Of a stretch of DNA of 64,000 nucleotides, positions 1 through 61,104 are shown piece by piece; the stretch's first letter is position 1, and every line of letters starts with the position of its first letter. The notes beneath the pieces are model-generated. The model made no database searches. It worked only from the letters and a program-made list of their open reading frames with translations, and had not been told where the DNA came from. The stretch is taken from positions 26,016 through 90,015 of the forward strand of contig CAYOTK010000004.1 of assembly GCA_964406895.1 (NCBI GenBank), given 5' to 3'. Made by a program: the position numbers and the translations under genes. Origin of the DNA: an uncultured Candidatus Saccharibacteria bacterium. Lineage in GTDB: Bacteria; Patescibacteriota; Minisyncoccia; Phycocordibacterales; PALSA-1337.

Positions 1-1236
1 CCCCATAGCGGGAAGACCGTCCTCATGGGTTTGCTTCGGGGCCTGTTGCCCCGGGACAAATTCATGGTTGCAGAGGCGGCACCTGATGGTGAAGGTATCA
101 CCGGATGGTCTGCCGAAGCGACGCAGGAGCTTGTCAAAGCGGTTCGCCGCAAGGGCAAGTTCCTGCCACAGTTCGTGGATTGGGTGTGCGCCTCGGTGCA
201 TAACTCCACGATGCCGATCACTCTCGTCGACTTGGGCGGAATGCTCTTGGACGATGAGGGAAAGTTCTCCGCCACGGGTGTCAGGCTGACAACGGAGAAT
301 GAACGAATCATGCGGGAATGCAGTCACTTGATCGTGATTGCGAACCCGAGCTACATGGAGTCGGCGGTGCCTACCTGGATCGCTGAAGCCAATCGTCTGG
401 GGGTCAAACCCTTGGCCATCCTCGAGTCGGTTCTTACGGGAGCTGATGATGAGATTGTAGCTGGGGGTGAACTCCCGATGCGAGCGCGTATCACGAAGCT
501 CGACCGGGAAAATCCTCCCCAATCCACAACCGCAAAGGTGGTCGTGGATTTGATCCTTTCACTCACAACAACGGAAGTCGTTGTGAAGGATGGTTCGGAA
601 GTCGCGGATGTGAATTTCCCGCGACTTGCCGAAACGCTCAACCTGCCGGTAAAAAACGGCGGGGCGGATCGCGACTGGCGACCTTCGGATCTTCCGAAAG
701 TACTGGCTGAAGCCAAAAAGCTTCTGGCCGGAAAATCGGAAGTGCGCCTTTGGGGAAACACTCCTCTCGGCGCACCGTACCATGTCCTCGCGGCAAATCT
801 GTCGCAGGAGGTTTGGTACGCTGATCCGAAAGTTCCGGGTGGCTATGTAGCTATTCCGGAAATGCCGGCCAGCACGGGAACACTCCTTGACTGGAAAGTC
901 GGGGAACGGGATGACAGCTCTCTCGTGGAGTTTGTCATTCCTGGGCAGGTGTTCAATGCGAACACTCTGCCCACACTCACCTTGCCGGAAGTGGACACTC
1001 GCAATGGTGTCGTAATTTCCGGCAAAGGACCACGTTGGCTCACCGGCGCAATCGCTCGGGCTTATGCTCGGGCAGGCGCCGCCTGGGTAGCGGTCTTTGA
1101 ACCGCGCGAGTCCAGCCGGATGCAGACTGACGGAAAGAAATGGTCGGAACACCATTCTGGCCAAGCTCCGGCAATTGTGGTCTACACGCGAGAGCGAGAC
1201 CACACCATCGGAACGATCATTCCGTTCAGTCTGTAA
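1..1236 (+). CDS. P-loop GTPase-like protein, paralog A (5' partial; continues upstream of window)
   Basis: Frame 1 is open from nt 1 and reads PHSGKTVLMG before the ATG at 25, so the Walker A/G1 lies at the window edge. ITLVDLGG is a G3-like DxxG motif. The N-terminus (PHSGK[ST]..L..LLP....FGAPDGE..W..EA.Q.LVK, hhhVDxGG) and the C-terminal block (GP.WL...IAR.YA.AGA.W.AVF.P.ES.R.Q...G.KWS..H) are homologous to ORF 7006..8715. Codon usage is GC-rich. Confidence 0.6.
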   Translation, partial: PHSGKTVLMGLLRGLLPRDKFMVAEAAPDGEGITGWSAEATQELVKAVRRKGKFLPQFVDWVCASVHNSTMPITLVDLGGMLLDDEGKFSATGVRLTTENERIMRECSHLIVIANPSYMESAVPTWIAEANRLGVKPLAILESVLTGADDEIVAGGELPMRARITKLDRENPPQSTTAKVVVDLILSLTTTEVVVKDGSEVADVNFPRLAETLNLPVKNGGADRDWRPSDLPKVLAEAKKLLAGKSEVRLWGNTPLGAPYHVLAANLSQEVWYADPKVPGGYVAIPEMPASTGTLLDWKVGERDDSSLVEFVIPGQVFNANTLPTLTLPEVDTRNGVVISGKGPRWLTGAIARAYARAGAAWVAVFEPRESSRMQTDGKKWSEHHSGQAPAIVVYTRERDHTIGTIIPFSL

Positions 1237-1370
1237 CAATTCAAAGGAATGGCAACTTCCTGATCCTTGATGGACAAATCGTTGCAGAAGCTTCGGAGAA
1301 GTGCTTCGGTTTTACTTCTCCACTTTATTCAACTCACGAATGGTTCGTGGGTTGACTGAGAAAGGTTTTC

Positions 1371-2387: not shown

Positions 2388-2420
2388 GGCGAGTTTTTGT
2401 GGAAACTCGCCCACTTTTTT
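2388..2420 (+). terminator. Rho-independent terminator followed by an AT-rich promoter-like patch (to ~2470)
   Basis: GGCGAGUUU / AAACUCGCC stem followed by CACUUUUUU. Then cctataatatttgtttttttaaaattgtagg forms an AT-rich patch inside the otherwise GC-rich island, upstream of the MoxR gene. Confidence 0.45.
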
Positions 2421-2530
2421 GAGCCTATAATATTTGTTTTTTTAAAATTGTAGGCTCTTTGAGTAAACGCCACAAAAATGGCGACGGCTTCAAATAGGTG
2501 CGCCGGAATAAGCACCAGTGGAGAATCACA

Positions 2531-3754: not shown

Positions 3755-5491
3755 ATGCAAACGAAAGCCAGCCCGCTCATGCGGCAGGAGTTGCAGAAAC
3801 TCCTGGTCACGGATGCGGACGCTTTCACGGCGCTCCGCTTCCTGCGTCACCGCGAGCGCACCCCAGCGCTTTCGGAATTGGAAAACCAAGGAGGAAACGA
3901 GGTGCCCGGTTTTGCCGGAGCGCTTTGTGACCTCTACCACTCACTGTGGACGGAGACACCCAAGGTCAAGGAAGAAATTCCGGCTGACCGGCGGTTCTTC
4001 GCGGAGATTCTTCGGGGGGCGCTGGCATCGTCAGCGTTTGATGGTCTCCACGCGCAGACACAGTACTCAGACATCAAGTCGGTACTCGGCACCCTTTCCA
4101 TGGGTGATGCAGTGCTGGCAACGATGTCTCCGGAGGAAAAGAAAAATCTCCAAGACACTGCTAGTGCGCAGAAAACAGCGGATGAAGCCGAGGACGAGGC
4201 CAAACAGGCCGAGAACGAAGCTGATTCTGCTGAAGCACTCGCCCAGATGGTGGAGCAATCCGCCGGACAGGGCGAGAGCAGTGAGGGCGGACAAGAATCA
4301 TCCGGCGATCCTTCGGGAGAAGCCGAGGGTGGTTCTGGAGCGCCCAAATCAGGCAGTCCTTCAGGATCGCCAAGTGGTGGTTCACACGGAGCAGTTAGCG
4401 GAATGACGCCCGATGAAGCGCAGGCACTTGCGAACGAACTCGCTCGACAAGCGAGGGAGGCGCGTGCCAAAGCCAACTCGGCACGCGAAACTGCGAACAG
4501 CGCCAAAGAGGTCGCCGAATCCATCGCCAACCAACTTCTGGGGCAACCCGGAAGCGAGGAGGCGATGGAGAGAGCGAAAGATCTGGCGCGTCGTGGATTA
4601 GCCGCTGCTCAAAAGGCCCAAGCGAAGGTTGAGGAAGTATCCAAGACCATTGACTCGTGGGGGCTTGAGGAAGGCGAGCTCGTCCAGATGGGCATTCCGG
4701 AGGCCATGGGGCTTCTAGAAAAAATGCGCCAGAGCACGGCGCTCAAGAAGTTTGCTCAACTCCTGGGCCGAATCAAAAAGATTGCCGCTCGAAAAGCGGC
4801 GTCCGATGATAAAGCCGATGGAGTGCGAGTCACGAAGCCGGAAACGGGTCATGATATCAAAAGAGCGCTTCCGAGGGAGCTCACTGCTCTCTCGCACCCA
4901 TCGCTTCGTTTCGGCGCACTGACGCGCTGGAGCCGAGGAGAACTCGCTCTTCGGGGCGAGGAATCAAAGAGGAAATTGGGCGAGGGGCCGGTCGTGGTCT
5001 GCGAAGACTCGTCAGGCTCTATGGACGGGGTTAAGCAACAGTGGGCAAAGGCTGTAGTTTTAGCACTGGCCCATTACGCAAAGCTTCGTAACCGATCGTT
5101 CGCGTGGATCATGTTTGACACTGCTATCCAGCGGAGTCGCATTTACACTCGCGGGCGATTAACGCCCAAGGACCTTTTGGAAATCGCCGAGTCACGCTCA
5201 GGAGGTGGGACGAATTTTGAAATCCCCCTTCGCGAAGCCGTCAAAGTGATTCGTGGTGCTGGCCTTAAGAAAGCCGACATTGCGTTCATCACCGACGGGG
5301 ATTGCGCGATTTCGGACGAATTCGTTCGGGAGTTTGGTGGGGTCAAGAAGGCATTGGAAGTCAACGTGTTCGCAGTTCTCTGCGATGTTGGCCATACTGC
5401 CGAGGCGACCATTGCAAAATTCTCGGACAGAATTGAACAGGCTTCATCTTTCAACGAGGATGAAGCGGAACAATTTTTCCAAAAACTCTGA
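3755..5491 (+). CDS. von Willebrand factor A (vWA) domain protein with acidic/coiled-coil N-terminal region
   Basis: Starts 12 nt after MoxR, with AAAGGA upstream. The C-terminal vWA domain has a complete MIDAS: VVVCEDSSGSMDG (DxSxS), SRSGGGTNF (T) and AFITDGD (D). The N-terminal ~380 aa are Ala/Glu/Ser/Gly-rich low-complexity and coiled-coil. Confidence 0.75.
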   Translation: MQTKASPLMRQELQKLLVTDADAFTALRFLRHRERTPALSELENQGGNEVPGFAGALCDLYHSLWTETPKVKEEIPADRRFFAEILRGALASSAFDGLHAQTQYSDIKSVLGTLSMGDAVLATMSPEEKKNLQDTASAQKTADEAEDEAKQAENEADSAEALAQMVEQSAGQGESSEGGQESSGDPSGEAEGGSGAPKSGSPSGSPSGGSHGAVSGMTPDEAQALANELARQAREARAKANSARETANSAKEVAESIANQLLGQPGSEEAMERAKDLARRGLAAAQKAQAKVEEVSKTIDSWGLEEGELVQMGIPEAMGLLEKMRQSTALKKFAQLLGRIKKIAARKAASDDKADGVRVTKPETGHDIKRALPRELTALSHPSLRFGALTRWSRGELALRGEESKRKLGEGPVVVCEDSSGSMDGVKQQWAKAVVLALAHYAKLRNRSFAWIMFDTAIQRSRIYTRGRLTPKDLLEIAESRSGGGTNFEIPLREAVKVIRGAGLKKADIAFITDGDCAISDEFVREFGGVKKALEVNVFAVLCDVGHTAEATIAKFSDRIEQASSFNEDEAEQFFQKL

Positions 5492-5502: not shown

Positions 5503-6156
5503 ATGGAAAATATCGTTGTAACGCTTCGAGCTGACCGGGGCAACAAGTTCGATGAAGACGGTCAGTGTATCGGGACCCATGAAAGGTCAATCGTCTTCAT
5601 GCCACGCGAGGTCAAGCCTGACCAAGTTGTCCGCGTCCGACTCATACCGATCATGGATCGAATGACGGGGAAAGAAAGAGTGGACAAAGGTGGCAGAGTT
5701 ATGTACCGCGCCGAACTCGCACCAGCGGAACTGCCGAGGAAATGCGAGGAAGACATTGCAAGGCAAGCAAAAGCCTTGCGGCAAGGCAAACCCTTTCCGA
5801 AGGATCAAGGCGAGGCACTCGCCAAATCCATATTTGGTAAGCGATTGGAACGTACTGACCACAAGTGGTACTACTTTTTCGCTGATGCCATCTTGGGGTC
5901 GCGGTTTTCACCCGCTGCCCTATTGATCTTAGAGGGGATGCCGATGTCTTCTGGTAGCTCATACGATGAGCTTATGGGGTGGTTGATCGGTAAAACTCGC
6001 TGGGGTTACAACTGGTACCACTTCCGAGAATCAGGAAAGATCGGAAAGGATGAGGTTCCGGAGTTTCCAGAAATAGAGCTCCGGACACTTATCGCGCGCC
6101 TTGAAAAAGGCGAATGGGTCATCGCAGACCTCTTGGTTAAGGAGGAACCGCGATGA
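5503..6156 (+). CDS. Hypothetical protein with TRAM-like (OB-fold) N-terminus; candidate vWA-MoxR-associated partner
   Basis: Starts 11 nt after the vWA gene. N-terminus VVTLRADRGNKFDEDGQCIGTHERSIVFMPREVKPDQVVRVRLIPI resembles the TRAM pattern (G.G.....g.vvFV....PGE.V.v.I). The rest is unassigned. Confidence 0.4.
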   Translation: MENIVVTLRADRGNKFDEDGQCIGTHERSIVFMPREVKPDQVVRVRLIPIMDRMTGKERVDKGGRVMYRAELAPAELPRKCEEDIARQAKALRQGKPFPKDQGEALAKSIFGKRLERTDHKWYYFFADAILGSRFSPAALLILEGMPMSSGSSYDELMGWLIGKTRWGYNWYHFRESGKIGKDEVPEFPEIELRTLIARLEKGEWVIADLLVKEEPR

Positions 6157-6191
6157 AAGGTTTTTGGTGCTGCAACACCAGTGGTTAAACC

Positions 6192-6235
6192 GGACGAATT
6201 TTTGCAGAAATTCGTCCACTTTATTCAATTCATAA
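6192..6235 (+). terminator. Hairpin after the TRAM-like gene (possible terminator)
   Basis: GGACGAAUUU / AAAUUCGUCC 10-bp stem, followed by ACUUUAUUCAAUUC, which is only moderately U-rich. Confidence 0.35.
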
Positions 6236-6327
6236 CTTCGGTTACGGATTGATAGAGTTTCAGCTCGAACCGCGTCCGCAGGCGCAACAATTTGCGGAAA
6301 AATTGCCCTTGAAAGGAGGGCTAACAG

Positions 6328-6774
6328 ATGAATTACAAAATCATCCCCGGATCCGTCGGGGTCCGGAAGTCGTTTCAGGTTACCTGCGGACTGCGCGTCG
6401 GGTACGACGCAGCCGCGGTGACTCACACCGGCGAGGAGGCCGTCGAGTCCGTCCTCGAACAATTGAAGTTCCGTGCGGCTGCGGGACTGCCGTACCTAAC
6501 CGGTACAATCACAACCGGAGAGGTCGTGTATGCATGGTCGGATGGGCCGGGCAAGGCCGGCGGCGGGCACGAGCCCGTCATCCGGTACGAGGGAGAAGTC
6601 AACCCCCTGTACAACAAGAATCTTCTCGAGAATCACGACGAGGTCGTCGCGATCTTGAACGAGCTCGGCATCGCCCTCGGAGCGGCGCTCGGGCAAACGC
6701 GGATCTACCTGGCCTACGACGGCCAGACGTGGATCCTCGAGGCGGAGAAGGCGGTTACCCCGACGGGTAACTAA
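6328..6774 (+). CDS. Hypothetical protein
   Basis: 148-aa ORF on the same strand within the island, with GGAGGG upstream. No recognisable motif. Confidence 0.35.
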   Translation: MNYKIIPGSVGVRKSFQVTCGLRVGYDAAAVTHTGEEAVESVLEQLKFRAAAGLPYLTGTITTGEVVYAWSDGPGKAGGGHEPVIRYEGEVNPLYNKNLLENHDEVVAILNELGIALGAALGQTRIYLAYDGQTWILEAEKAVTPTGN

Positions 6775-7005
6775 TTTCTCCAAAGGTTGTGTGAACCTTC
6801 AAAACATTCTGCGTCCCGCGTGGCGCAAAAAAATTTGGTTAACGGTGAGTGTATGCGGACACCCACAAAACTTTCAGCACCGGTCGGGTTGATCGGTGCT
6901 GGACTTTATTGAGTCCGTCCGCTTTTAGCGGGTTGATTCAAAAAGTTAAAGACAGCGACGAGAGTCGCCCGAGCCAGTCGGGTACTGGCATGAAAGGATA
7001 GCGGA

Positions 7006-8715
7006 ATGAAAAATATCCGCCGAGTAGTGGTTTGCGGACCCCCGCATTCGGGAAAGTCTGTGTTCCTAGCCAATCTCCAACGGCTATTGCCGGTTGAGCA
7101 TCACATGCTCATTTTCGGCGCTCCCGACGGTGAGTGGCATTGGAGCAACGAGGCCAACCAGAGCCTCGTCAAAAACCTGCGGGAAAAGAAAGGCTTCTCG
7201 CAGGACTGGTGCCGTCAAATCGTAACAGCGATCCAGAGTGCCGATCAGAAATTGGTACTCGTGGATACGGGTGGCAAGCGATTGCCACCGAACGATGAGA
7301 TCTTCTCGTCGTGCGATGGTTTCATCATTATTTCCTCATCGCCGGAGGAAATGATTGAGTGGCGGAAGTTCGGCGAGAGTTTCGGATGCCAGTGCTTGGC
7401 CGAGCTTGACTCGGTTTTGCATGGAACGTCAGAGCTCTATCCAGACCGCAAGGACGGCATCATCCGCGGTCAGATATGCGGTCTCGAGCGCGGGAAGACC
7501 ATTGAGTCGCCTGTGATGGACGCGGTGGCCAGTCGGCTTTGCGAAGTCATCAAAGCTAACGCTGAAATGACCAAGGCCGAACTTCTCGCCAACATCAATG
7601 GCGTGAAGTTGGTAGACCATCTGGGAATCACAGATCGCTCGGATCCGTATCTCGGAGTGAGGCCCTGGCACACGGCTCCTGCACTCAAACTCACGGCCGT
7701 GGCGCGCCGACTGGAAATCGTGCGAATCTGGAATGTCCGCACAAGTTTCCTGTCCTGCGCCTTCGCCTCGATGCTCCCAGGAAAAGTCCAGCTCTTCGGC
7801 GTGTCCGAGGGGTATGTGGAATTACCTGAAGTCGTTCCGGCTGGGAACGCTTCCGGCGATGGGGTGGAATGGGAAGTTACCGAACTGGCCGAGTATACCT
7901 TAGTGGAATTCCGCAAAACACGATTCTTCACTAAGGAACTGCTGGCGAGCGTGGTACCGCCCGTAGTCAATTCTCGCAAGGGGGTTGTGCTGTCTACGGA
8001 CGGTCCGCCCATCTGGCTAGACGCGACGATCGCAAGGTCGTATGCAAAAGCTGGCGCACCATGGATTGCTGTCTTCGTTCCGGTTGAGTCCGGACGAGTC
8101 CAGCCGTCTTTGGACGGCCAGAAATGGAGTGATGTGCACCCACCAGACGGACCGTGCGTGATAATTTACGGTCCGGAAAATCGGCTGGGAGAAATCATTC
8201 CCGTGCCGATTGCCCTGCTTAAATGGCAAGGGGGTGGACGTAAGTGGCGACTCGGGTCGGGCGAGCCAGTCGTGGATCGACAGAACAGCCACCTTGCCAC
8301 GCACGGCACGGTTTTGCCGTTCGTGGGTGAAGCCTTGCTCCAGATTCAATCCGGAGGACAAGACTTCATCGCCGAAGAAGTAGGTTTTGGCGAAGCCATC
8401 GGGCAGACGATTTGTGTCGCCACCCGCGAGGATGACGACATCGTTTTCGCCCAGCGGCCAAACCGAGCCGGACTCACACGGTTCGTGAAAGGTCGCGAGC
8501 CGGAGTCGTGCTCGACGGTTGTGGTTTGTCTAAAGCGAGCGCGGGAGGGCGGATACATCCTCCTTACTGCGTACATTGGTAGACGCACACCGGCCGAACC
8601 GTGGGACATGGAATGGGCAACGGATCAGTCCGTGCCTTTCTGGAATTCCCATGCTCTGATTTGGGGGCACGAATCAACAATACCAGGAACTGAAACGAAG
8701 GTTTGTTCTTGGTGA
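7006..8715 (+). CDS. P-loop GTPase-like protein, paralog B
   Basis: G1 is VVVCGPPHSGKS and G3-like is LVLVDTGGK. The N-terminal domain and a C-terminal block (GPPIWLDATIARSYAKAGAPWIAVFVPVESGRVQ...GQKWSDVH) are paralogous to ORF 1..1236. An additional ~170-aa C-terminal extension is present. Confidence 0.65.
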   Translation: MKNIRRVVVCGPPHSGKSVFLANLQRLLPVEHHMLIFGAPDGEWHWSNEANQSLVKNLREKKGFSQDWCRQIVTAIQSADQKLVLVDTGGKRLPPNDEIFSSCDGFIIISSSPEEMIEWRKFGESFGCQCLAELDSVLHGTSELYPDRKDGIIRGQICGLERGKTIESPVMDAVASRLCEVIKANAEMTKAELLANINGVKLVDHLGITDRSDPYLGVRPWHTAPALKLTAVARRLEIVRIWNVRTSFLSCAFASMLPGKVQLFGVSEGYVELPEVVPAGNASGDGVEWEVTELAEYTLVEFRKTRFFTKELLASVVPPVVNSRKGVVLSTDGPPIWLDATIARSYAKAGAPWIAVFVPVESGRVQPSLDGQKWSDVHPPDGPCVIIYGPENRLGEIIPVPIALLKWQGGGRKWRLGSGEPVVDRQNSHLATHGTVLPFVGEALLQIQSGGQDFIAEEVGFGEAIGQTICVATREDDDIVFAQRPNRAGLTRFVKGREPESCSTVVVCLKRAREGGYILLTAYIGRRTPAEPWDMEWATDQSVPFWNSHALIWGHESTIPGTETKVCSW

Positions 8716-9295
8716 AAAAAGTGTTAGAAAGTGCACCCAAAAAACTTTCCTCCGCTACAGAGCGTTGTGGCAAACATACGCATATGTAATTGTTCTTTTG
8801 GTCAACGGTAGTTCTGATGCGTCAGGGTTACCACAACAAAATTCCCAGCACCGCCTTGGTCGGTGGCGCTGGACTCAATTGAGTTCATGATTTTAGAGGA
8901 TCGTGAATTCATAGAGTATTACGCAGTGAAATAAGCATTAAAACAAAAAGAAGGCCCCATAAAGCTATAGGCCAGCATGACGGAATCAGATCAGGAAAAA
9001 GTGCGAGTGATTGCAAAATCTCTCTCCTCTAACCCTTCGACAAGCTCAGGATTATCCCGAGCAAAGTCGAGGGACAAACACGATTTCTTGGTTTGTCATC
9101 CAGTCGTTATGACCTGTAGCTTTATGGGGCTTTTTCATAATTCAAGACAATATACATTGCCACAATGTCAACATGGTTATTAGGTTGCTTAAAATATGGC
9201 TTATTATATAATTGATGCATGGTTCGAAACTCGATCCACCTTCACACTAGTGAATGGTAGGCCGAGACCATTTATTAGCATTAACAATAAATATA

Positions 9296-9568
9296 ATGAA
9301 CAAAGCAAGCATTGTAGAAGCAGTTCATGCAGTTCTCGGTGGAACAAAGGTTCAGGCCGAGCAAGCAGTAGAAGCAGTGATCAACAGTGTCATTGATTCT
9401 CTCAAGAAGGGTGAGGAGGTCTCAATCGCAGGTCTCGGCATCTTCTCGGTCAAACAGCGTGCAGCACGCGAGGCTCGTAACCCAAGGACAGGTGAATCCA
9501 TAAAGGTTCCTGCCATGAAGGTTCCTAAGTTCCGCGCCGCAAAGGCATTGAAGGATGCAGTAAAATAA
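9296..9568 (+). CDS. hup: HU family nucleoid DNA-binding protein
   Basis: MNKASIVEAVHAVLGGTKVQAEQAVEAVINSVIDSLKKGEEVSIAGLGIFSVKQRAAREARNPRTGESIKVPAMKVPKFRAAKALKDAV matches the HU/IHF signature (GFG.F.....R.GRNP.TGE...IPA...P.F.AGK.LKD). Start taken at the internal ATG (MNKAS). Confidence 0.85.
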   Translation: MNKASIVEAVHAVLGGTKVQAEQAVEAVINSVIDSLKKGEEVSIAGLGIFSVKQRAAREARNPRTGESIKVPAMKVPKFRAAKALKDAVK

Positions 9569-9598
9569 TACTTCAACTTCGTTTCTTACAGAAAAACA

Positions 9599-9635
9599 AG
9601 AACCACCCTGATTTTTAAGGGGTGGTTTTTGTTTT
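9599..9635 (+). terminator. Rho-independent terminator downstream of hup
   Basis: GAACCACCC / GGGUGGUU stem followed by UUUUGUUUUG. Confidence 0.5.
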
Positions 9636-9680: not shown

Positions 9681-10433
9681 ATGGACATATCGCCAGACAG
9701 AAAACTTGTAACCAGTATGGAAATCGGCCCAGAAAGATTACCGAAAATCGAAGTCGACGTTTATAAAGACGCGGTAAATTACTGGGGTGCATGTAATCAT
9801 TCGATTCAATCTAAAGACTGGACGACTAGTATGGATCCCGATGTTGTTGAAAAAATTCGTGGCAAAACCAGAGAAGAGGCTGATAAGTTCCTCATCCCAT
9901 ATTTACAAGAAAAACATTTAGAAAAAACGCTCGAAATAGAGCGGTTTAAACAATTTGCACTCAAAGAGTTTAGCGAAAAATTTGAGACTGCATGTAATAA
10001 ACTTAAGCAGGTAATGTGTGGATATGAGATTTATAGAAATGATTTTACAATATTTATCACAACAATAAGTCGTCAACCCTACAACAAGGAAAACGGCTGG
10101 ATTTGGATGGGTATCAATAATACAGATCCGATACGCACATTTTTGCATGAATTATGTCATTTTCAATTTATTCATTATTGGCAAGAAAATACAGATTCGC
10201 CAGTAAGCAAACTTAGTCCTGAAGAATTCAATTATTTGAAAGAATCCTTAACAATGATTCTTGATGATGATTTCTTCCCTATTATACGAGCAGTAGACAG
10301 GGGCTATGAAGCACACCAAAGTTTTCGCGCCGTCTTAAAAGAATTCTGGTCAAAAAACAAAGATTTCAACGCGCTCGTTGATTATGCACTTAAAAGACTG
10401 CCGGAATTTATTTCAAAACCACAAAAAAATTAG
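9681..10433 (+). CDS. Hypothetical protein with HExxH motif (possible zinc metallopeptidase-like)
   Basis: 250-aa ORF with AT-rich codon usage. Contains FLHELCHFQF (HExxH). No further family assignment possible by eye. Confidence 0.5.
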   Translation: MDISPDRKLVTSMEIGPERLPKIEVDVYKDAVNYWGACNHSIQSKDWTTSMDPDVVEKIRGKTREEADKFLIPYLQEKHLEKTLEIERFKQFALKEFSEKFETACNKLKQVMCGYEIYRNDFTIFITTISRQPYNKENGWIWMGINNTDPIRTFLHELCHFQFIHYWQENTDSPVSKLSPEEFNYLKESLTMILDDDFFPIIRAVDRGYEAHQSFRAVLKEFWSKNKDFNALVDYALKRLPEFISKPQKN

Positions 10434-11214: not shown

Positions 11215-11285
11215 TGCGGGCAGGGAGAATCGAACTCCCGTCTACACATTGGAAGTGTGTTATTCTACCACTAAACCATGCCCGC
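11215..11285 (-). tRNA. tRNA-Gly (anticodon UCC)
   Basis: The reverse complement reads GCGGGCAUGGUUUAGUGGUAGAAUAACACACUUCCAAUGUGUAGACGGGAGUUCGAUUCUCCCUGCCCGCA. It has a 7-bp acceptor, a GUUU/GAAU D-stem, an ACACA/UGUGU anticodon stem with loop CUUCCAA, and T-arm GGGAG-UUCGAUU-CUCCC. CC is encoded after the discriminator but the final A is not. Confidence 0.8.
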
Positions 11286-11363
11286 AATATTCAGTTATTT
11301 AAGAACAAAGTCAATACTAGCAATTATTTTTCGATATAACAAGACACTAATTTATCCAAAAAA

Positions 11364-11804
11364 TTATTTTTTATTTTCGTTTTCACTCTTTCCATCAACA
11401 ATCACCTCTTTGATCTCATCAATCTCCTTTTTCATCTCCTTGATTGTTGTTCTGATCTGCCCTATCTGCATTTCTTCCTCTTCTATTTCCTTCTCAGTTT
11501 TGTCCGTAACCTTCTTTTGCCCCTTCAAACCACTAATCAATATGGTGTCCCCTATAAAATAAGAAACAAACAATCCGGTAGCAAGCAAAACAATCAACAC
11601 CAAGATAAGACTTATAGGTTCATAGAATATGATGCCCCACCACCCTCCTTTGGCCTGAAGTATGTCGGCAGTATGCCAAACACCTCTCCAAAACAAAACA
11701 ATAGCCGTACCCCCTATCAACGTATAAAGAATAGGATAACGACTGAGGTGAACCCTGATCACATCCTCCAATTTATCAAAGAAATTTACTACTCTTTTTA
11801 TCAT
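11364..11804 (-). CDS. Hypothetical small membrane protein with Lys/Glu-rich C-terminus
   Basis: 146-aa ORF with two hydrophobic segments (LIGGTAIVLFW, ISLILVLIVLLATGLFV). AT-rich codon usage consistent with the host. Confidence 0.4.
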   Translation of the reverse strand: MIKRVVNFFDKLEDVIRVHLSRYPILYTLIGGTAIVLFWRGVWHTADILQAKGGWWGIIFYEPISLILVLIVLLATGLFVSYFIGDTILISGLKGQKKVTDKTEKEIEEEEMQIGQIRTTIKEMKKEIDEIKEVIVDGKSENENKK

Positions 11805-11831
11805 TTTTATGATTAATTTACTTAATATTCT

Positions 11832-11907
11832 TGGTCGGAGCGCCGGGATTCGAACCCGGAGTCACCTGTACCCAAAACAGGTATGTTAGCCGTTACACCA
11901 CGCTCCG
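11832..11907 (-). tRNA. tRNA-Pro (anticodon UGG), CCA encoded
   Basis: The reverse complement reads CGGAGCGUGGUGUAACGGCUAACAUACCUGUUUUGGGUACAGGUGACUCCGGGUUCGAAUCCCGGCGCUCCGACCA. Anticodon loop is UUUGGGU, T-arm is CCGGG-UUCGAAU-CCCGG, and the 3' CCA is genomically encoded. Confidence 0.8.
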
Positions 11908-11949
11908 TATGCAATGATATTAGCATAATATATCGAAATTGCACACGAA

Positions 11950-12348
11950 TCACAAAATAATATCCTGAATCCAATTGATATTCCCTGCCCTATTATCAGA
12001 ATCGATGTGAATTGCCAAAACGTGAAAATAAAATCTGATCTCATCACTTATTTTATTTTCATTCAAGTATGTTTCTATCATTCTGCGAATATGCTTCACC
12101 TTGAAACCATGAACATTCTCTTCCGGCCTATGGATGTCTGTTACATTTCCTATATTAAAAGTCGTGCTTTTTACCTCGAAGAAATGTATAGCACCATCCT
12201 TGAAACCAACAATATCTAATTCTCCCCATTTACGTTGGTAATTTCTAGCTATAATAGAAAAATTATTTTTCTTCAAGAAATCGCAAGCAATATCTTCTCC
12301 AATCTTTCCAAAGTATTTATTTTGTTTTTTGTTTGCATTATTTAACAT
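11950..12348 (-). CDS. YraN/UPF0102 family endonuclease-like protein
   Basis: 132-aa protein with GELDIVGFKDGAIHFFEVKS, matching the UPF0102 core (GE.DI.....L.FVEVK.R). Confidence 0.6.
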   Translation of the reverse strand: MLNNANKKQNKYFGKIGEDIACDFLKKNNFSIIARNYQRKWGELDIVGFKDGAIHFFEVKSTTFNIGNVTDIHRPEENVHGFKVKHIRRMIETYLNENKISDEIRFYFHVLAIHIDSDNRAGNINWIQDIIL

Positions 12349-12692
12349 AAATGTCCTGACTTTTAAACTTGAATAATAATAGTACGGCCCAAATTAGCCA
12401 CATTCACAGTATTCACAAATAATAGGACCAAAAAACACGAATATTAGCCATATTTCCTGTCTTTTATCACCACTATTAACAGACTTATCCACAGTTTGTC
12501 CTTTCAGCCCACGAATTTAAGCCGTATTTATCCGACTTATATGTGTATAAAGTACTGTCGTTTATACTTTACAATTCGTACTAATATTCCGCTCTAATAA
12601 AGCATTGTCTAACAAAAAACTACACACTTATTGTGCCTGCACCGAGCGAGGTGCTAAATCGAAATTATTTACTAATCACGAAAAAATTGAGG

Positions 12693-12763
12693 TGCGGGTA
12701 GGGAGAATCGAACTCCCACCTCGTCCTTGGCAAGGACGCGTCCTACCACTAAACGATACCCGC
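12693..12763 (-). tRNA. tRNA-Gly (anticodon GCC)
   Basis: The reverse complement reads GCGGGUAUCGUUUAGUGGUAGGACGCGUCCUUGCCAAGGACGAGGUGGGAGUUCGAUUCUCCCUACCCGCA. Anticodon loop is UUGCCAA. It is a paralog of the tRNA-Gly(UCC) and shares part of its 3' flank. Confidence 0.8.
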
Positions 12764-13001
12764 GGATTTCAACAAAAGGCATTATAGCCTATAATTTCAA
12801 AATTTGAAAGTTTTTACAAAACACTCTTGCTTCGCCAAAGGCTTCGCAAGACGAGTGCGTTTTTATAACTGTCCTACTACGCTCCTCACTCCGTTCGGAG
12901 CTTCGTAGGACTGCTTCGCGAAAGTGTATTATTGAGAATGCAATTAAACAAGTACTTGTACTGCGAAGCGACCCCAGCGATTAGCTGGGGTCGCGAAGCA
13001 G

Positions 13002-13075
13002 TACGCCCGGCAGGACTCGAACCTGCAACCCCTTGGTTCGAAGCCAAGTACTCTATCCAATTGAGCTACGGGCGC
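13002..13075 (-). tRNA. tRNA-Arg (anticodon UCG)
   Basis: The reverse complement reads GCGCCCGUAGCUCAAUUGGAUAGAGUACUUGGCUUCGAACCAAGGGGUUGCAGGUUCGAGUCCUGCCGGGCGUA. Anticodon loop is CUUCGAA, T-arm is GCAGG-UUCGAGU-CCUGC, with a G1-U72 wobble. CCA is not encoded. Confidence 0.7.
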
Positions 13076-13139
13076 GCATTGACATCATACCCTACTTGCA
13101 GTATTTGTGAAGTACTAAAATTAGTATATACTTGATTAC

Positions 13140-17966: not shown

Positions 17967-18134
17967 AAACAAAGCAGGTACAGCATGTACATACTAGTCG
18001 TTGCGAAAACTCACTCCTTAAATTTCTAAGAAAAAGCCTCACGAGGTCATCACGGTTCGGCTTTTTCTAAGAAATTTATAGTCGTTCAAACAGTTCGCAA
18101 CGACTAGTATGTACATGCTGTACCTGCTTTGTTT
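17967..18134. repeat. Palindromic element copy 1: perfect 41-bp inverted repeats flanking an 86-bp conserved core
   Basis: aaacaaagcaggtacagcatgtacatactagtcgttgcgaa at 17967-18007 is the exact reverse complement of 18094-18134. The core at 18008-18093 has its own internal inverted repeat (aaatttctaagaaaaagcc / ggctttttctaagaaattt) and is shared with 20813-20898 and, in reverse orientation, 62079-62167. Confidence 0.7.
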
Positions 18135-20774: not shown

Positions 20775-20936
20775 TTTTTCAGCAGTACATGTGTGCTTTT
20801 GTTCGTTGCGAAAACTCACTCCTTAAATTTCTAAGAAAAAGCTTTACGAGGTCATCACGGTTCGGCTTTTTATAAGAAATTTATAGTCGTTCAAACAGTT
20901 CGCAACGAACAAAAGCACACATGTACTGCTGAAAAA
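20775..20936. repeat. Palindromic element copy 2: perfect 38-bp inverted repeats around the same 86-bp core
   Basis: tttttcagcagtacatgtgtgcttttgttcgttgcgaa at 20775-20812 is the exact reverse complement of 20899-20936. The core at 20813-20898 is ~95% identical to 18008-18093. The arm sequences differ from copy 1 but are again perfectly self-complementary. Confidence 0.7.
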
Positions 20937-60862: not shown

Positions 60863-61024
60863 GAATAAAATTATAGCAGAATAGTGTCTTACTACGCTCG
60901 CTACGCGAGCTTCGTAGGACTGCTTTCCTGCTCCGCCAAAGGCTACGCAGGACAAGCGCGTTTTATGCATTATTGTGCCTGCACTGCGAAGCAACCCCAG
61001 CGATTAGCTGGGGTTGCGAGGCAG

Positions 61025-61098
61025 TGCGCCCAGTTGGATTCGAACCAACGACCCACTCCTTAAAAGGGAGTTGCTCTACCAGGCTGAGCTATGGGCGC
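61025..61098 (-). tRNA. tRNA-Lys (anticodon UUU)
   Basis: The reverse complement reads GCGCCCAUAGCUCAGCCUGGUAGAGCAACUCCCUUUUAAGGAGUGGGUCGUUGGUUCGAAUCCAACUGGGCGCA. Anticodon stem is ACUCC/GGAGU with loop CUUUUAA. CCA is not encoded. Confidence 0.8.
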
Positions 61099-61104
61099 GC
61101 GGAT

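Follow-up and report, generated by a model that had tools for sequence, protein, structure and literature searches.

A covarying two-hairpin RNA element in the intergenic spacers of AAA-Csx3 clusters from Patescibacteria, at positions where related clusters carry hammerheads

Intergenic palindromes of the REP/BIME type can shield the mRNA upstream of them against 3′ exonucleases, and cleavage at RNase III sites of the phage T7 type leaves a stabilizing 3′ hairpin on the upstream message. In vitro, clustered hammerheads that flank genes have been shown to cut polycistronic RNA, and their presumed role is to process it into gene-length mRNAs (PMC3088659; review PMC6765202). Motifs that share genetic contexts with hammerhead and twister led to the discovery of twister-sister, pistol, and hatchet (PMC5737381). 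Two copies of a hairpin element found in the 64-kb stretch of DNA analyzed here (the window) are instances of a previously undescribed structured-RNA family, located between the genes of a Csx3-type cluster in Patescibacteria. The elements probably mark where a long mRNA is cut or stabilized, since they sit where related clusters carry self-cleaving hammerheads.

The copies lie on the forward strand at about 6835–6949 and about 8798–8920, not at 6786–6880 and 8794–8885 as given in the first-pass annotation, in which gttaacggtgagt was assigned a start at 6786 (true start 6838). Their similarity is genuine, with a local alignment score of 42 versus 17.9 ± 2.4 (maximum 30) in 500 dinucleotide shuffles (z = 10), and across the rest of the 64-kb window nothing matches copy 1 better than copy 2. 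The aligned segments span 6833–6946 and 8796–8917. The CAGCACCG/CGGTGCTG stem-loop noted at first pass folds in both copies and is here termed hairpin A (73% identity between the copies). Placement was also as described, copy 1 lying in the 231-nt spacer ahead of a 569-aa gene and copy 2 beginning 80 nt past the stop of that gene. Both have a further hairpin 5′ of hairpin A, of the same shape and differing sequence, which is missing from most family members. A small third hairpin (GGACUnnAUUGAGUyC) in the original description is not conserved; it competes with a longer conserved hairpin, B, which includes its bases. The two copies do not stand alone: at least five related elements, these two included, occur in the same block (Table 1) and are members of a larger family.

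Table 1. Elements and the flanked gene in the window (positions of the window; cells are empty where no entry applies)
Feature	Position	Strand	Sequence or context	Basis
Copy 1, upstream GGUU box	6838..6846	+	TTGGTTAAC	Seen in sequence
Copy 1, extra 5′ hairpin 1	6845..6866	+	GUG.GUGU/ACAC.CAC	MFE fold
Copy 1, hairpin A	6875..6901	+	CAGCACCGGTC/GATCGGTGCTG, loop GGGUU	Folds
Copy 1, hairpin B	6902..6949	+	Lower helix, bulged U, upper helix	Covariance model, MFE fold
Copy 2, upstream box	8800..8808	+	TTGGTCAAC	Sequence, alignment
Copy 2, extra 5′ hairpin 1	8807..8832	+	GGUAGUUCUGA/UCAGGGUUACC	MFE fold
Copy 2, hairpin A	8845..8872	+	CAGCACCGCC/GGTGGCGCTG, loop UUGGUC	Folds
Copy 2, hairpin B	8873..8920	+	ACUCAAUUGAGUUCAUGAU...AUCGUGAAUUCAUAGAGU	Covariance model
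Third instance	1295..1364	+	Hairpin A 1295–1321, B 1322–1364; between AAA-Csx3 paralog A and HD gene	
Weaker instance	2388..2467	+	Hairpin A 2388–2411, B 2411–2467; ahead of MoxR gene	
Further instance	6192..6261	+	Hairpin A 6192–6217, B 6218–6261; ahead of 148-aa gene	
Paralog B (569 aa)	7006..8715	+	P-loop NTPase, Csx3, unassigned C-terminal domain; flanked by both copies	

Covariance models R1 and R2 identified five instances within a 10-kb high-GC block and none in the remaining 55 kb of the window. Hairpin B of copy 1 scored 32.3 bits with R1 (E = 3e-5) and 27.1 bits with R2 (E = 9e-4), its nearest relative being L017:6346–6388 (74%). The corresponding values for copy 2 were 41.3 bits (E = 1e-7) and 44.7 bits (E = 1e-8), with L030:7850–7897 (77%) and L017:5777–5823 (71%) as nearest relatives. 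Folds support the third instance (R1 43.5 bits, R2 44.2 bits) and the instance ahead of the 148-aa gene, which is the top R2 match (47.8 bits, E = 2e-9). The element ahead of the MoxR gene is weaker (R1 E = 0.15; R2 29 bits, E = 3e-4), and its hairpin A is terminator-like in a consensus scan. Hairpin B of copy 2 is the final feature of the high-GC block, the GC content dropping past about 8900. A chimeric assembly behind this jump was rejected, as two independent Logan contigs share the junctions at 100% identity.

Paralog B, which lies between the two copies, matches Pfam Cas_csx3 and AAA_18 as well as PADLOC AAA-Csx3 (E = 2.5e-49). In its AF2 model (pLDDT 83.6) the Csx3 domain aligns with AfCsx3/Crn3 (6yud) at a TM score of 0.87. 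Beyond this domain, Foldseek comparison with the PDB recovered just a P-loop domain of SIMIBI-like type and left the 160 C-terminal residues unassigned, so that nothing supports a healing role of the polynucleotide-kinase type. In IMG/VR we found no relative of paralog B that would point to a phage origin. The AAA-Csx3, HD, and MoxR-VWA genes are CRISPR-ancillary, and no CRISPR locus was seen in the window or in the flanking sequence examined; no RNase was recognizable among the cluster genes. A consensus scan of L001, the locus sequence spanning the entire block, found only one strong sigma-70-like promoter (L001:1103–1131), upstream of the whole block. Promoter candidates inside the block are weak 9/12 matches, only one of them in a spacer (L001:5414–5443, inside the 2411–2467 element). 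This arrangement is consistent with one long transcript needing internal punctuation.

Searches covering both strands of 267 kb of related Patescibacteria loci returned 38 matches with R2 (E ≤ 0.1) and 27 with R1 (E ≤ 0.05); these counts do not represent independent events because the loci are related and some instances are copies within one genome. All 38 instances are on the gene strand. Each is intergenic, 37–160 nt past a stop codon and 7–130 nt ahead of the next start, and each lies inside an AAA-Csx3/HD/MoxR-VWA cluster, with up to seven per locus. Every match in L026 and L027 (±10 kb) falls in the cluster neighborhood. Among L029–L032 (±8 kb), matches are confined to L030 and to L032, the latter with a single one at the cluster's far end; L029 and L031 contain the same cluster type with no element match. 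No element was found near the flanking housekeeping genes (EF-G, EF-Tu, NusA, trigger factor) in the loci examined.

The family module consists of a GGUU box, which is single-stranded, and of hairpins A and B, set 0–2 nt apart. Hairpin A occurs immediately 5′ of B in essentially all matches (mean z −3.2) and has 6–17 bp in 30/30 instances examined, often with GGUU in its loop. Within a genome it can be nearly identical between spacers (L017 2028–2052 versus 5752–5776, 96%). In hairpin B, a lower helix of 6 bp with conserved sequence (CUUUA/UAGAG) is joined by one bulged U to an upper helix of ~12 bp whose sequence is free. The bulged U is 100% conserved and is the sole invariant unpaired base; in the window it lies at about 1329, 6225, 6910, and 8881 in four of the elements. 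In the 70 nt 5′ of hairpin B, GGTT is 4.4-fold enriched across the 38 instances, with peaks at −40..−31 and −20..−11.

Within covariance-model alignments, which are biased towards the model's own structure, 86.1% of hairpin B cells are paired, compared with 67.1 ± 1.3 in shuffles and 36–46% in slid controls. Double-change cells number 99 against 31.5 ± 5.5 in shuffles, and compensatory changes affect 14 of the 18 pairs. The sense strand folds better than the antisense in 29/30 cases (mean MFE −36.8 versus −27.0 kcal/mol, p = 3.5e-8); as a consequence of G-U pairs (13% of all pairs), antisense folds are 9.7 kcal/mol worse. Strong covariation together with better folding of the sense strand indicates that the element acts as RNA. 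The cis-acting RNA suggested in the first-pass annotation is accordingly supported by a covarying, strand-specific, and G-U-rich structure that is always on the coding strand and always intergenic. Pairing of the hairpin A loop with the B loop or flanks as a pseudoknot gave duplex energies the same as those of shuffled loops.

Known RNA classes did not cover the element. Rfam 15 yielded five tRNAs only in the window at the gathering threshold, no match in 6100–9300 at E ≤ 10, none in L001 at E ≤ 1, and nothing overlapping the two-hairpin elements in the related loci (20+ loci searched). Judged by the core C3–A9 (CUGAUGA) and G12–A14 (GAA) between three helices, a type III hammerhead was rejected, as 5/5 window elements have no CUGAUGA...GAAA core and no RF00008 match. 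A hidden or variant hammerhead was sought by hand alignment of hairpin B, including the natural U3/A8 variant, and was likewise discarded (register misfit, no A9, no stem II). A riboswitch or ligand-sensing attenuator does not fit conserved bases that are helical, the missing pseudoknot signal, or several copies per operon with one past the last gene. Some hairpin A loops (L005, L013, L018, L015) contain GGUGGUACC, suggestive of a T-box, but there is no Rfam T-box match and no upstream stem I. A sigma-70 promoter (TTGAGT/TTCAAC + TAGAGT) was also dismissed, its spacing ranging over 22–50 nt and its spacer covarying as a helix.

More distantly related clusters carry type III hammerheads in the same positions, upstream of the paralog B homolog in L006, L014, L022, and L031 and downstream of it in L029 and L030. 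In L030 this one gene has a two-hairpin module before it and a hammerhead after it. A box and hairpin A of the same kind stand ahead of the hammerheads, abutting stem III, and the GUUCUUUGAAA flank partly recurs behind them. The best RF00008 match is L031:7849 (48.1 bits, E = 2e-7), the others having E values of 1e-5 to 6e-3, all under the gathering score of 48.5. A loop–flank pairing in these modules (UUCAAA with UUUGAA) was inconsistent across loci and was set aside. We found no paper linking hammerheads to Csx3 clusters.

We give roughly an even chance to the element being an intercistronic module for mRNA processing and stability, a reading based on its structure and on this interchange of positions. 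A modular sense-strand RNA would punctuate the long polycistronic transcript of the AAA-Csx3, SpoT-like HD, and MoxR-VWA cluster, which may be cut within or at hairpin B. The cutter would most plausibly be an endonuclease specific for double strands, for example the housekeeping RNase III, or else a factor reading the conserved lower helix and bulged U. Classical RNase III substrates resemble hairpin B in size, at about 18 bp plus a bulge, and its 18 modeled pairs and single bulge agree with roughly two turns of dsRNA in which imperfections are tolerated. Against this reading, the conserved lower-helix sequence and the bulged U are not known as RNase III determinants, the cluster has no recognizable RNase, hairpin A with CUUUAUU would also suit an intrinsic terminator, and some clusters of the same type do not carry the element. 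The cut would leave the upstream cistron with hairpin A as a protective 3′-terminal stem and give the downstream one its own 5′ end, so that the sub-operons A, HD-84-71, MoxR-VWA-217, 148, and B could differ in stability and yield. In related clusters the type III hammerheads would do the equivalent job autonomously.

The main rival of this processing reading, possible though doubtful in our estimation, is a leaky intrinsic terminator or attenuator, in which hairpin A and the U-rich CUUUAUU would halt part of the transcription per sub-operon. Hairpin B would then exist only in read-through RNA, sequestering the U tract or structuring the next 5′ UTR, and the GGUU boxes could bind a termination-tuning factor. 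Hairpin A is GC-rich and is directly followed by (A)CUUUAUU, and the elements begin soon past stop codons. Under a rule of at least 5 bp, a loop of 3–8 nt, and at least 5 U in 8 starting 0–2 nt after the stem, the consensus scan finds terminator-like hairpins A at 6873–6903 (copy 1, with its CTTTATTG tail), 6192–6217, and L001:5383–5406. The scan as a whole is, however, not above shuffle expectation (18 versus 14 ± 3.9), and the U run falls short at 1295–1321 and in copy 2 (ACTCAATT), where ACUCAAUU has 3 U in 8 and hairpin A was not flagged. The homologous hairpin A of hammerhead-type modules is followed by CCCUCC or UCUGUCC and not by a U tract. Moreover, the complement of the tract, UAGAG, is conserved and changes length with it (CUUA/UAGG, CUUUUA/UAGGAG), whereas a terminator needs no such partner. 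Several B hairpins end 5–20 nt ahead of a ribosome-binding site, and because the block spacers have no strong promoter, efficient termination would silence the downstream genes. Of the attenuator suggested at first pass, the terminator-like look of hairpin A and CUUUAUU stands, but copy 2 lies past the last gene of the block and no antiterminator pairing was found.

The tight restriction of the element to the AAA-Csx3 cluster type, along with conserved helix bases, the invariant bulged U, and repeated GGUU boxes, would also suit a small RNA, about 80–115 nt long, that is stand-alone or excised. Such an RNA could be a partner, substrate, or decoy of AAA-Csx3, the HD hydrolase, or MoxR-VWA, using the boxes, lower helix, and bulged U as protein-binding determinants. 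AfCsx3, a homolog of the Csx3 domain of the cluster, has been crystallized with ssRNA (3wzi) and cA4 (6yud), and past the last gene copy 2 has no downstream cistron requiring a 5′ end. We nevertheless regard this as unlikely, given that the consensus scan found no promoter for separate transcription, that up to seven instances per locus lie each exactly in a gene–gene spacer, that the upper helices vary freely, and that the elements are replaced by hammerheads, which are cis-cleaving devices. Rather improbable is a new RNA cleavage element substituting for the hammerheads, either a minimal self-cleaving motif at the bulged U or a dedicated substrate of the cluster-encoded AAA-Csx3/HD. At the DNA level, a recombination site, attC-like cassette site, or mobile palindrome of the REP/MITE type might have spread with, or caused, the paralog duplication. 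We judge this very improbable: all instances share one orientation, the poorer antisense fold argues against a double-stranded or cruciform site, and compensatory substitutions keep the helices though flanking homologs are only 50–85% identical to paralog B. Nor do the neighborhoods contain an integrase or transposase, direct repeats flank the block, or the conserved parts hold attC core sites (RYYYAAC/GTTRRRY), and element-bearing spacers are orthologous between genomes. The near-identical hairpins A in different spacers of one genome speak for a DNA repeat, as do the mosaic look of copy 2 (A like copy 1, B like L017:5777), its position exactly at the GC boundary, and a gene order that varies between loci. 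The more specific proposal of a recombination site tied to the duplicated paralogs is not supported, on the same grounds and because instances also lie beside genes that are not paralogs (HD, MoxR, the 148-aa gene).

If the processing module is real, it would be a new family of structured RNAs in Patescibacteria, a phylum whose RNA biology is almost entirely uncharacterized, and would make a self-cleaving ribozyme and a simple bulged hairpin alternative ways of serving a single position in an operon. It would also provide a natural swap experiment on the purpose of bacterial hammerheads, which is still an open question. Were a cluster-encoded activity to act on the element as its substrate, the Csx3-type cluster would be regulated in part by processing its own transcript. 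The family offers a testable handle on the expression of stand-alone AAA-Csx3/HD/MoxR-VWA clusters, and the covariance model can be used for annotating them. Should the elements be merely terminator-like hairpins, their interest would be modest and local.

Among described systems, Rho-independent terminators resemble the module in lying downstream of genes and in having a U-rich tract right behind a GC-rich stem-loop. Here, in contrast, the U tract is paired to a conserved complement, forming the foot of a second covarying hairpin, and copy 2 and the hammerhead-type modules have only a weak U tract or none. REP/BIME stabilizing palindromes are likewise intergenic operon hairpins with several similar copies per genome, but the present elements keep to one orientation and one gene cluster, have diverged with compensatory changes, and are accompanied by no RAYT or transposase. 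The intercistronic RNase III hairpins of the phage T7 early region (R0.3–R1.3) are similar in being long imperfect hairpins between cistrons of one transcript, with some flanking sequence in common. They have no sequence relation to the Patescibacteria elements, which differ in having a separate hairpin A, the invariant bulged U, and GGUU boxes, and in which cleavage is putative. Clustered type III hammerheads beside genes of bacterial and prophage operons (Perreault et al. 2011, PMC3088659; RF00008) differ in that the window elements contain neither the catalytic core nor stem II, and as they also have no Rfam hammerhead match even at E ≤ 10, self-cleavage by known chemistry is not expected. 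Both nonetheless occupy the same cluster spacers on the same strand behind a box and hairpin A, and the order of helix, unpaired pyrimidine, and helix in hairpin B mirrors stem III, H17, and stem I, with the invariant bulged U at a position that appears analogous to H17.

Two similar sequences do flank paralog B, an AAA-Csx3 gene, as the first-pass annotation had proposed, copy 1 lying in the 231-nt spacer before this 569-aa ORF and copy 2 just after it, but the coordinates were off: copy 1 runs from ~6835, ~50 nt downstream of 6786 where it had been placed, and copy 2 starts near 8798 in our reading of 6000-9600. Local alignment of both spacers pairs 6833-6946 with 8796-8917 at a score of 42, against 17.9 ± 2.4 (maximum 30) in 500 dinucleotide shuffles (z = 10), and nowhere in the 64-kb window does copy 1 have a better match than copy 2. 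Both are on the plus strand and contain the CAGCACCG/CGGTGCTG stem-loop described earlier. An additional 5' hairpin and a TTTGGTYAACGGT box are peculiar to these two copies. A third hairpin (GGACUnnAUUGAGUyC) is found in G-type variants only, where it competes with hairpins A and B, and is not a family feature.

The spacers beside paralog B homologs share one architecture despite quite different sequences, namely a GC-rich hairpin A followed after 0-2 nt by a long hairpin B, whose foot has a 5' strand reading (A)CUUUAUU(S)A and a 3' strand reading U(S')AUAGAG. R1, a covariance model that we built for hairpin B from 17 instances picked by hand, returned 33 matches at E <= 1, the sole opposite-strand match being the weakest (E = 0.94). 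A search of both strands of 267 kb with the second-round model (R2) returned 38 matches at E <= 0.1, 38/38 of them on the gene strand. Every match is intergenic. Window matches are confined to the high-GC block, every match in the related loci L026 and L027 (+/-10 kb) falls within the cluster neighbourhood, and among L029-L032 (+/-8 kb) L030 and L032 alone yield a match; no matches were found near the flanking housekeeping genes. Both models missed a divergent variant downstream of the paralog B homolog in L015 (~3800-3930) and L032 (~9740-9830), comprising a GGUUACUUG box, hairpin A and then CUUUUUCUUGUGU...ACACAAGCUGAAAG, so that the 38 matches underestimate the extent of the family. In the extended neighbourhood, a two-hairpin element (L027:3143-3190) directly precedes the gene for a 75-aa protein (L027:3236-3463) that is limited to an RNA polymerase alpha C-terminal-domain-like fold.

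RNAalifold recovered hairpin B on a plain MAFFT alignment, with compensatory changes in 14/16 pairs. The model-fitted alignment is best described as a lower helix of 6 bp and an upper helix of 12 bp separated by one bulged U, with 86.1% of cells paired against 67.1 ± 1.3 in shuffles (slid controls, 36-46%) and 99 double-change cells against 31.5 ± 5.5, covariation counts that overstate independent events given the fitting of the alignments to the model and the relatedness of the sequences. The bulge is a U in 38/38 instances. In the lower helix, the five inner pairs keep their sequence and show no compensatory change, and their strands co-vary in length (CUUA/UAGG, CUUUUA/UAGGAG). A putative bulged C/G position proved to be paired (G-C 12, C-G 9). 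All 30 examined instances have a hairpin A, with 6-17 bp and a mean z of -3.2, and the region upstream of B is 4.4-fold enriched in GGUU, with peaks in the hairpin A loop and ~20 nt further upstream. The hairpins A of copies 1 and 2 are mutual closest relatives (73%) and L017 likewise has hairpin A twins within one genome (96%), while the nearest B relatives lie in other genomes (L017:6346, 74%, for copy 1; L030:7850, 77%, for copy 2). We infer from this pattern that copies were exchanged or duplicated within the cluster with their helices maintained.

GC content is 52-60% from window position 1 to ~8900 and 35-40% in the remainder. The right junction is present at 100% identity in two independent Logan assemblies and the left, ~1 kb before the window start, in one of them (L001), ruling out an assembly chimera as the source of the GC jump; the block thus spans ~10 kb, from L001:~1940 to window ~8920, inside a low-GC Patescibacteria contig. 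No integrase and no flanking repeats were found. Synteny of the low-GC neighbours (TrmB and a ~950-aa gene) with other genomes suggests replacement of the resident cluster through recombination with a high-GC relative. The nearest relatives of the block are L008 and L017 (74-80% DNA identity). All block genes are on the plus strand. Paralog B homologs (50-86% identity) occur in Patescibacteria MAGs (Adlerbacteria, Kaiserbacteria and unclassified), and none were found in viral contigs. Synteny at all loci comprises a large protein, divergent TrmB regulator, ORF-poor gap, small ORFs, B, HD, MoxR and VWA, HD usually being present after B and missing in some loci. The gap after TrmB (L001:994-1940), 600-1400 nt long in most related loci examined, could be a long leader or unannotated RNA.

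Several smaller features accompany the cluster. The paralog B leader carries two more small hairpins, GCGAC..GUCGC and CCGAGnCnGUCGGG (window 6955-6990, L008:3950-3985, L017:3945-3983), conserved in 83-85% relatives and followed by ACUGGCA just ahead of the ribosome-binding site, with a 26-nt look-alike inside the B coding region (8247-8272). Directly downstream of the 148-aa gene's stop codon is a small hairpin, AAGGUU-GUGUG-AACCUU (6783-6799), which in L008 (~3782-3800, AAAGUU...AACUUU) has a compensatory change from G-C to A-U and precedes a conserved CAAAACAYUCUGC. Between the block end and the HU gene (9296-9568), a 187-nt stretch (8949-9135, plus strand) folds as a very stable rod ending in a U run (-91.7 kcal/mol, z = -11.6 vs shuffles); it has no Rfam match and is a candidate non-coding RNA gene of 6S-like shape.

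Features of the window and related loci (window coordinates unless a locus is named)
Feature	Position	Strand	Remark
Module, copy 1	6835-6949	+	before paralog B
Module, copy 2	8798-8920	+	after paralog B
Module instance	1295-1364		before HD gene
Module instance, weaker	2388-2467		before MoxR gene
Module instance	6192-6261		before 148-aa gene
Csx15-like protein	block	+	
AAA-Csx3 paralog A	block	+	truncated by window start
SpoT-like HD hydrolase	block	+	
Two small ORFs	block	+	after HD hydrolase
RavA-like MoxR ATPase	block	+	
ViaA-like VWA protein	block	+	
217-aa and 148-aa proteins	block	+	
Paralog B	7006-8715	+	P-loop domain, Csx3 domain, C-terminal domain without assignment
Direct repeat, 106 nt	17998-18103, 20803-20908		97% identity, low-GC part
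Repeated tRNA gene and flank	12825-13077, 60926-61100		48 kb apart
Five tRNA genes	11215-13075, 61025-61098	-	
Type III hammerheads	L006:2840-2894, 3799-3838, ~6275-6330		
Type III hammerheads	L014:2064-2118, 2506-2560, 3892-3944		
Type III hammerheads	L031:6701-6755, 7849-7903, 11771-11825		
Type III hammerheads	L007:3579-3633; L030:9747-9801; L029 ~9765-9825		
Type III hammerheads	L022 ~380-470; L010 ~455-520		

In more distant AAA-Csx3 clusters of related Patescibacteria, the same spacers are occupied by type III hammerhead ribozymes with intact cores, several per locus and all on the gene strand. Nine were matched by RF00008 at E = 2e-7 to 6e-3, all under the curated cut-off (best 48.1 vs 48.5 bits), so that standard annotation would miss them; L006:3799 (E = 0.32) and L030:9747 (E = 0.14) scored more weakly, and pattern matching and inspection by eye reveal further hammerheads. 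On the upstream side of the paralog B homolog, hammerheads occur in L006, L014, L022 and L031 and two-hairpin modules in the window, L005, L008, L017, L018 and L030; downstream, hammerheads occur in L029 and L030 and modules in the window, L003, L004, L005, L008, L013, L017 and L018, so that both types are found in L030. A module of like kind lies ahead of the hammerheads, in which a short box recurs in the loop of a hairpin A directly adjoining stem III, and GUUCUUUGAAA follows several hammerheads as well as some B hairpins.

The sole strong promoter-like site (L001:1103-1131, window about -1892) is located upstream of the whole block. It is sigma-70-like, TTGACA-17-TATTAT with TG (11/12 with extended -10), and faces the cluster ~840 nt ahead of the first gene. 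Since the block spacers contain no more than a single weak match (9/12), in the 2411-2467 element, and the distance from the end of hairpin B to a ribosome-binding site is 5-20 nt in several cases, the elements appear to be transcribed within a long mRNA. We give about even credence to their being intercistronic punctuation modules. An endonucleolytic cut at or in hairpin B would leave hairpin A as a protective 3' stem and provide the following cistron with a defined 5' end. RNase III would be the most economical nuclease candidate; the conserved lower helix, invariant bulged U and GGUU boxes point to a factor with more specific recognition.

The main rival, in which hairpin A and a U tract form a leaky terminator or attenuator, is a tentative possibility. 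Against it, the U tract has a conserved complement and is poor in copy 2, and the homologous hairpin in hammerhead modules has no U tract behind it. The sense strand folds a mean of 9.7 kcal/mol better than the complement (29/30, p = 3.5e-8; G-U share of pairs, 13%), and this asymmetry and the single orientation argue for function at the sense-RNA level. An excised small RNA that serves the proteins of the cluster is unlikely, and a DNA-level recombination or mobile repeat would be quite surprising. Self-cleavage is also unlikely, as neither a pseudoknot nor a conserved unpaired core was found in the elements.

The element constitutes a new RNA motif. No family in Rfam 15 matches it, and we found no description of it in the literature; its general kind, cis-acting intercistronic RNA structures, is already known. 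The positional alternation with hammerheads was unexpected, and the element is a reasonable candidate for experimental test, self-cleavage included. Hairpin B recalls a hammerhead in that its lower helix, bulged U and upper helix correspond to stem III, H17 and stem I, but the core and stem II are missing, making this a resemblance and not membership. Clustered hammerheads flanking genes cut polycistronic RNA in vitro and have been proposed to yield gene-length mRNAs (PMC3088659; PMC6765202).
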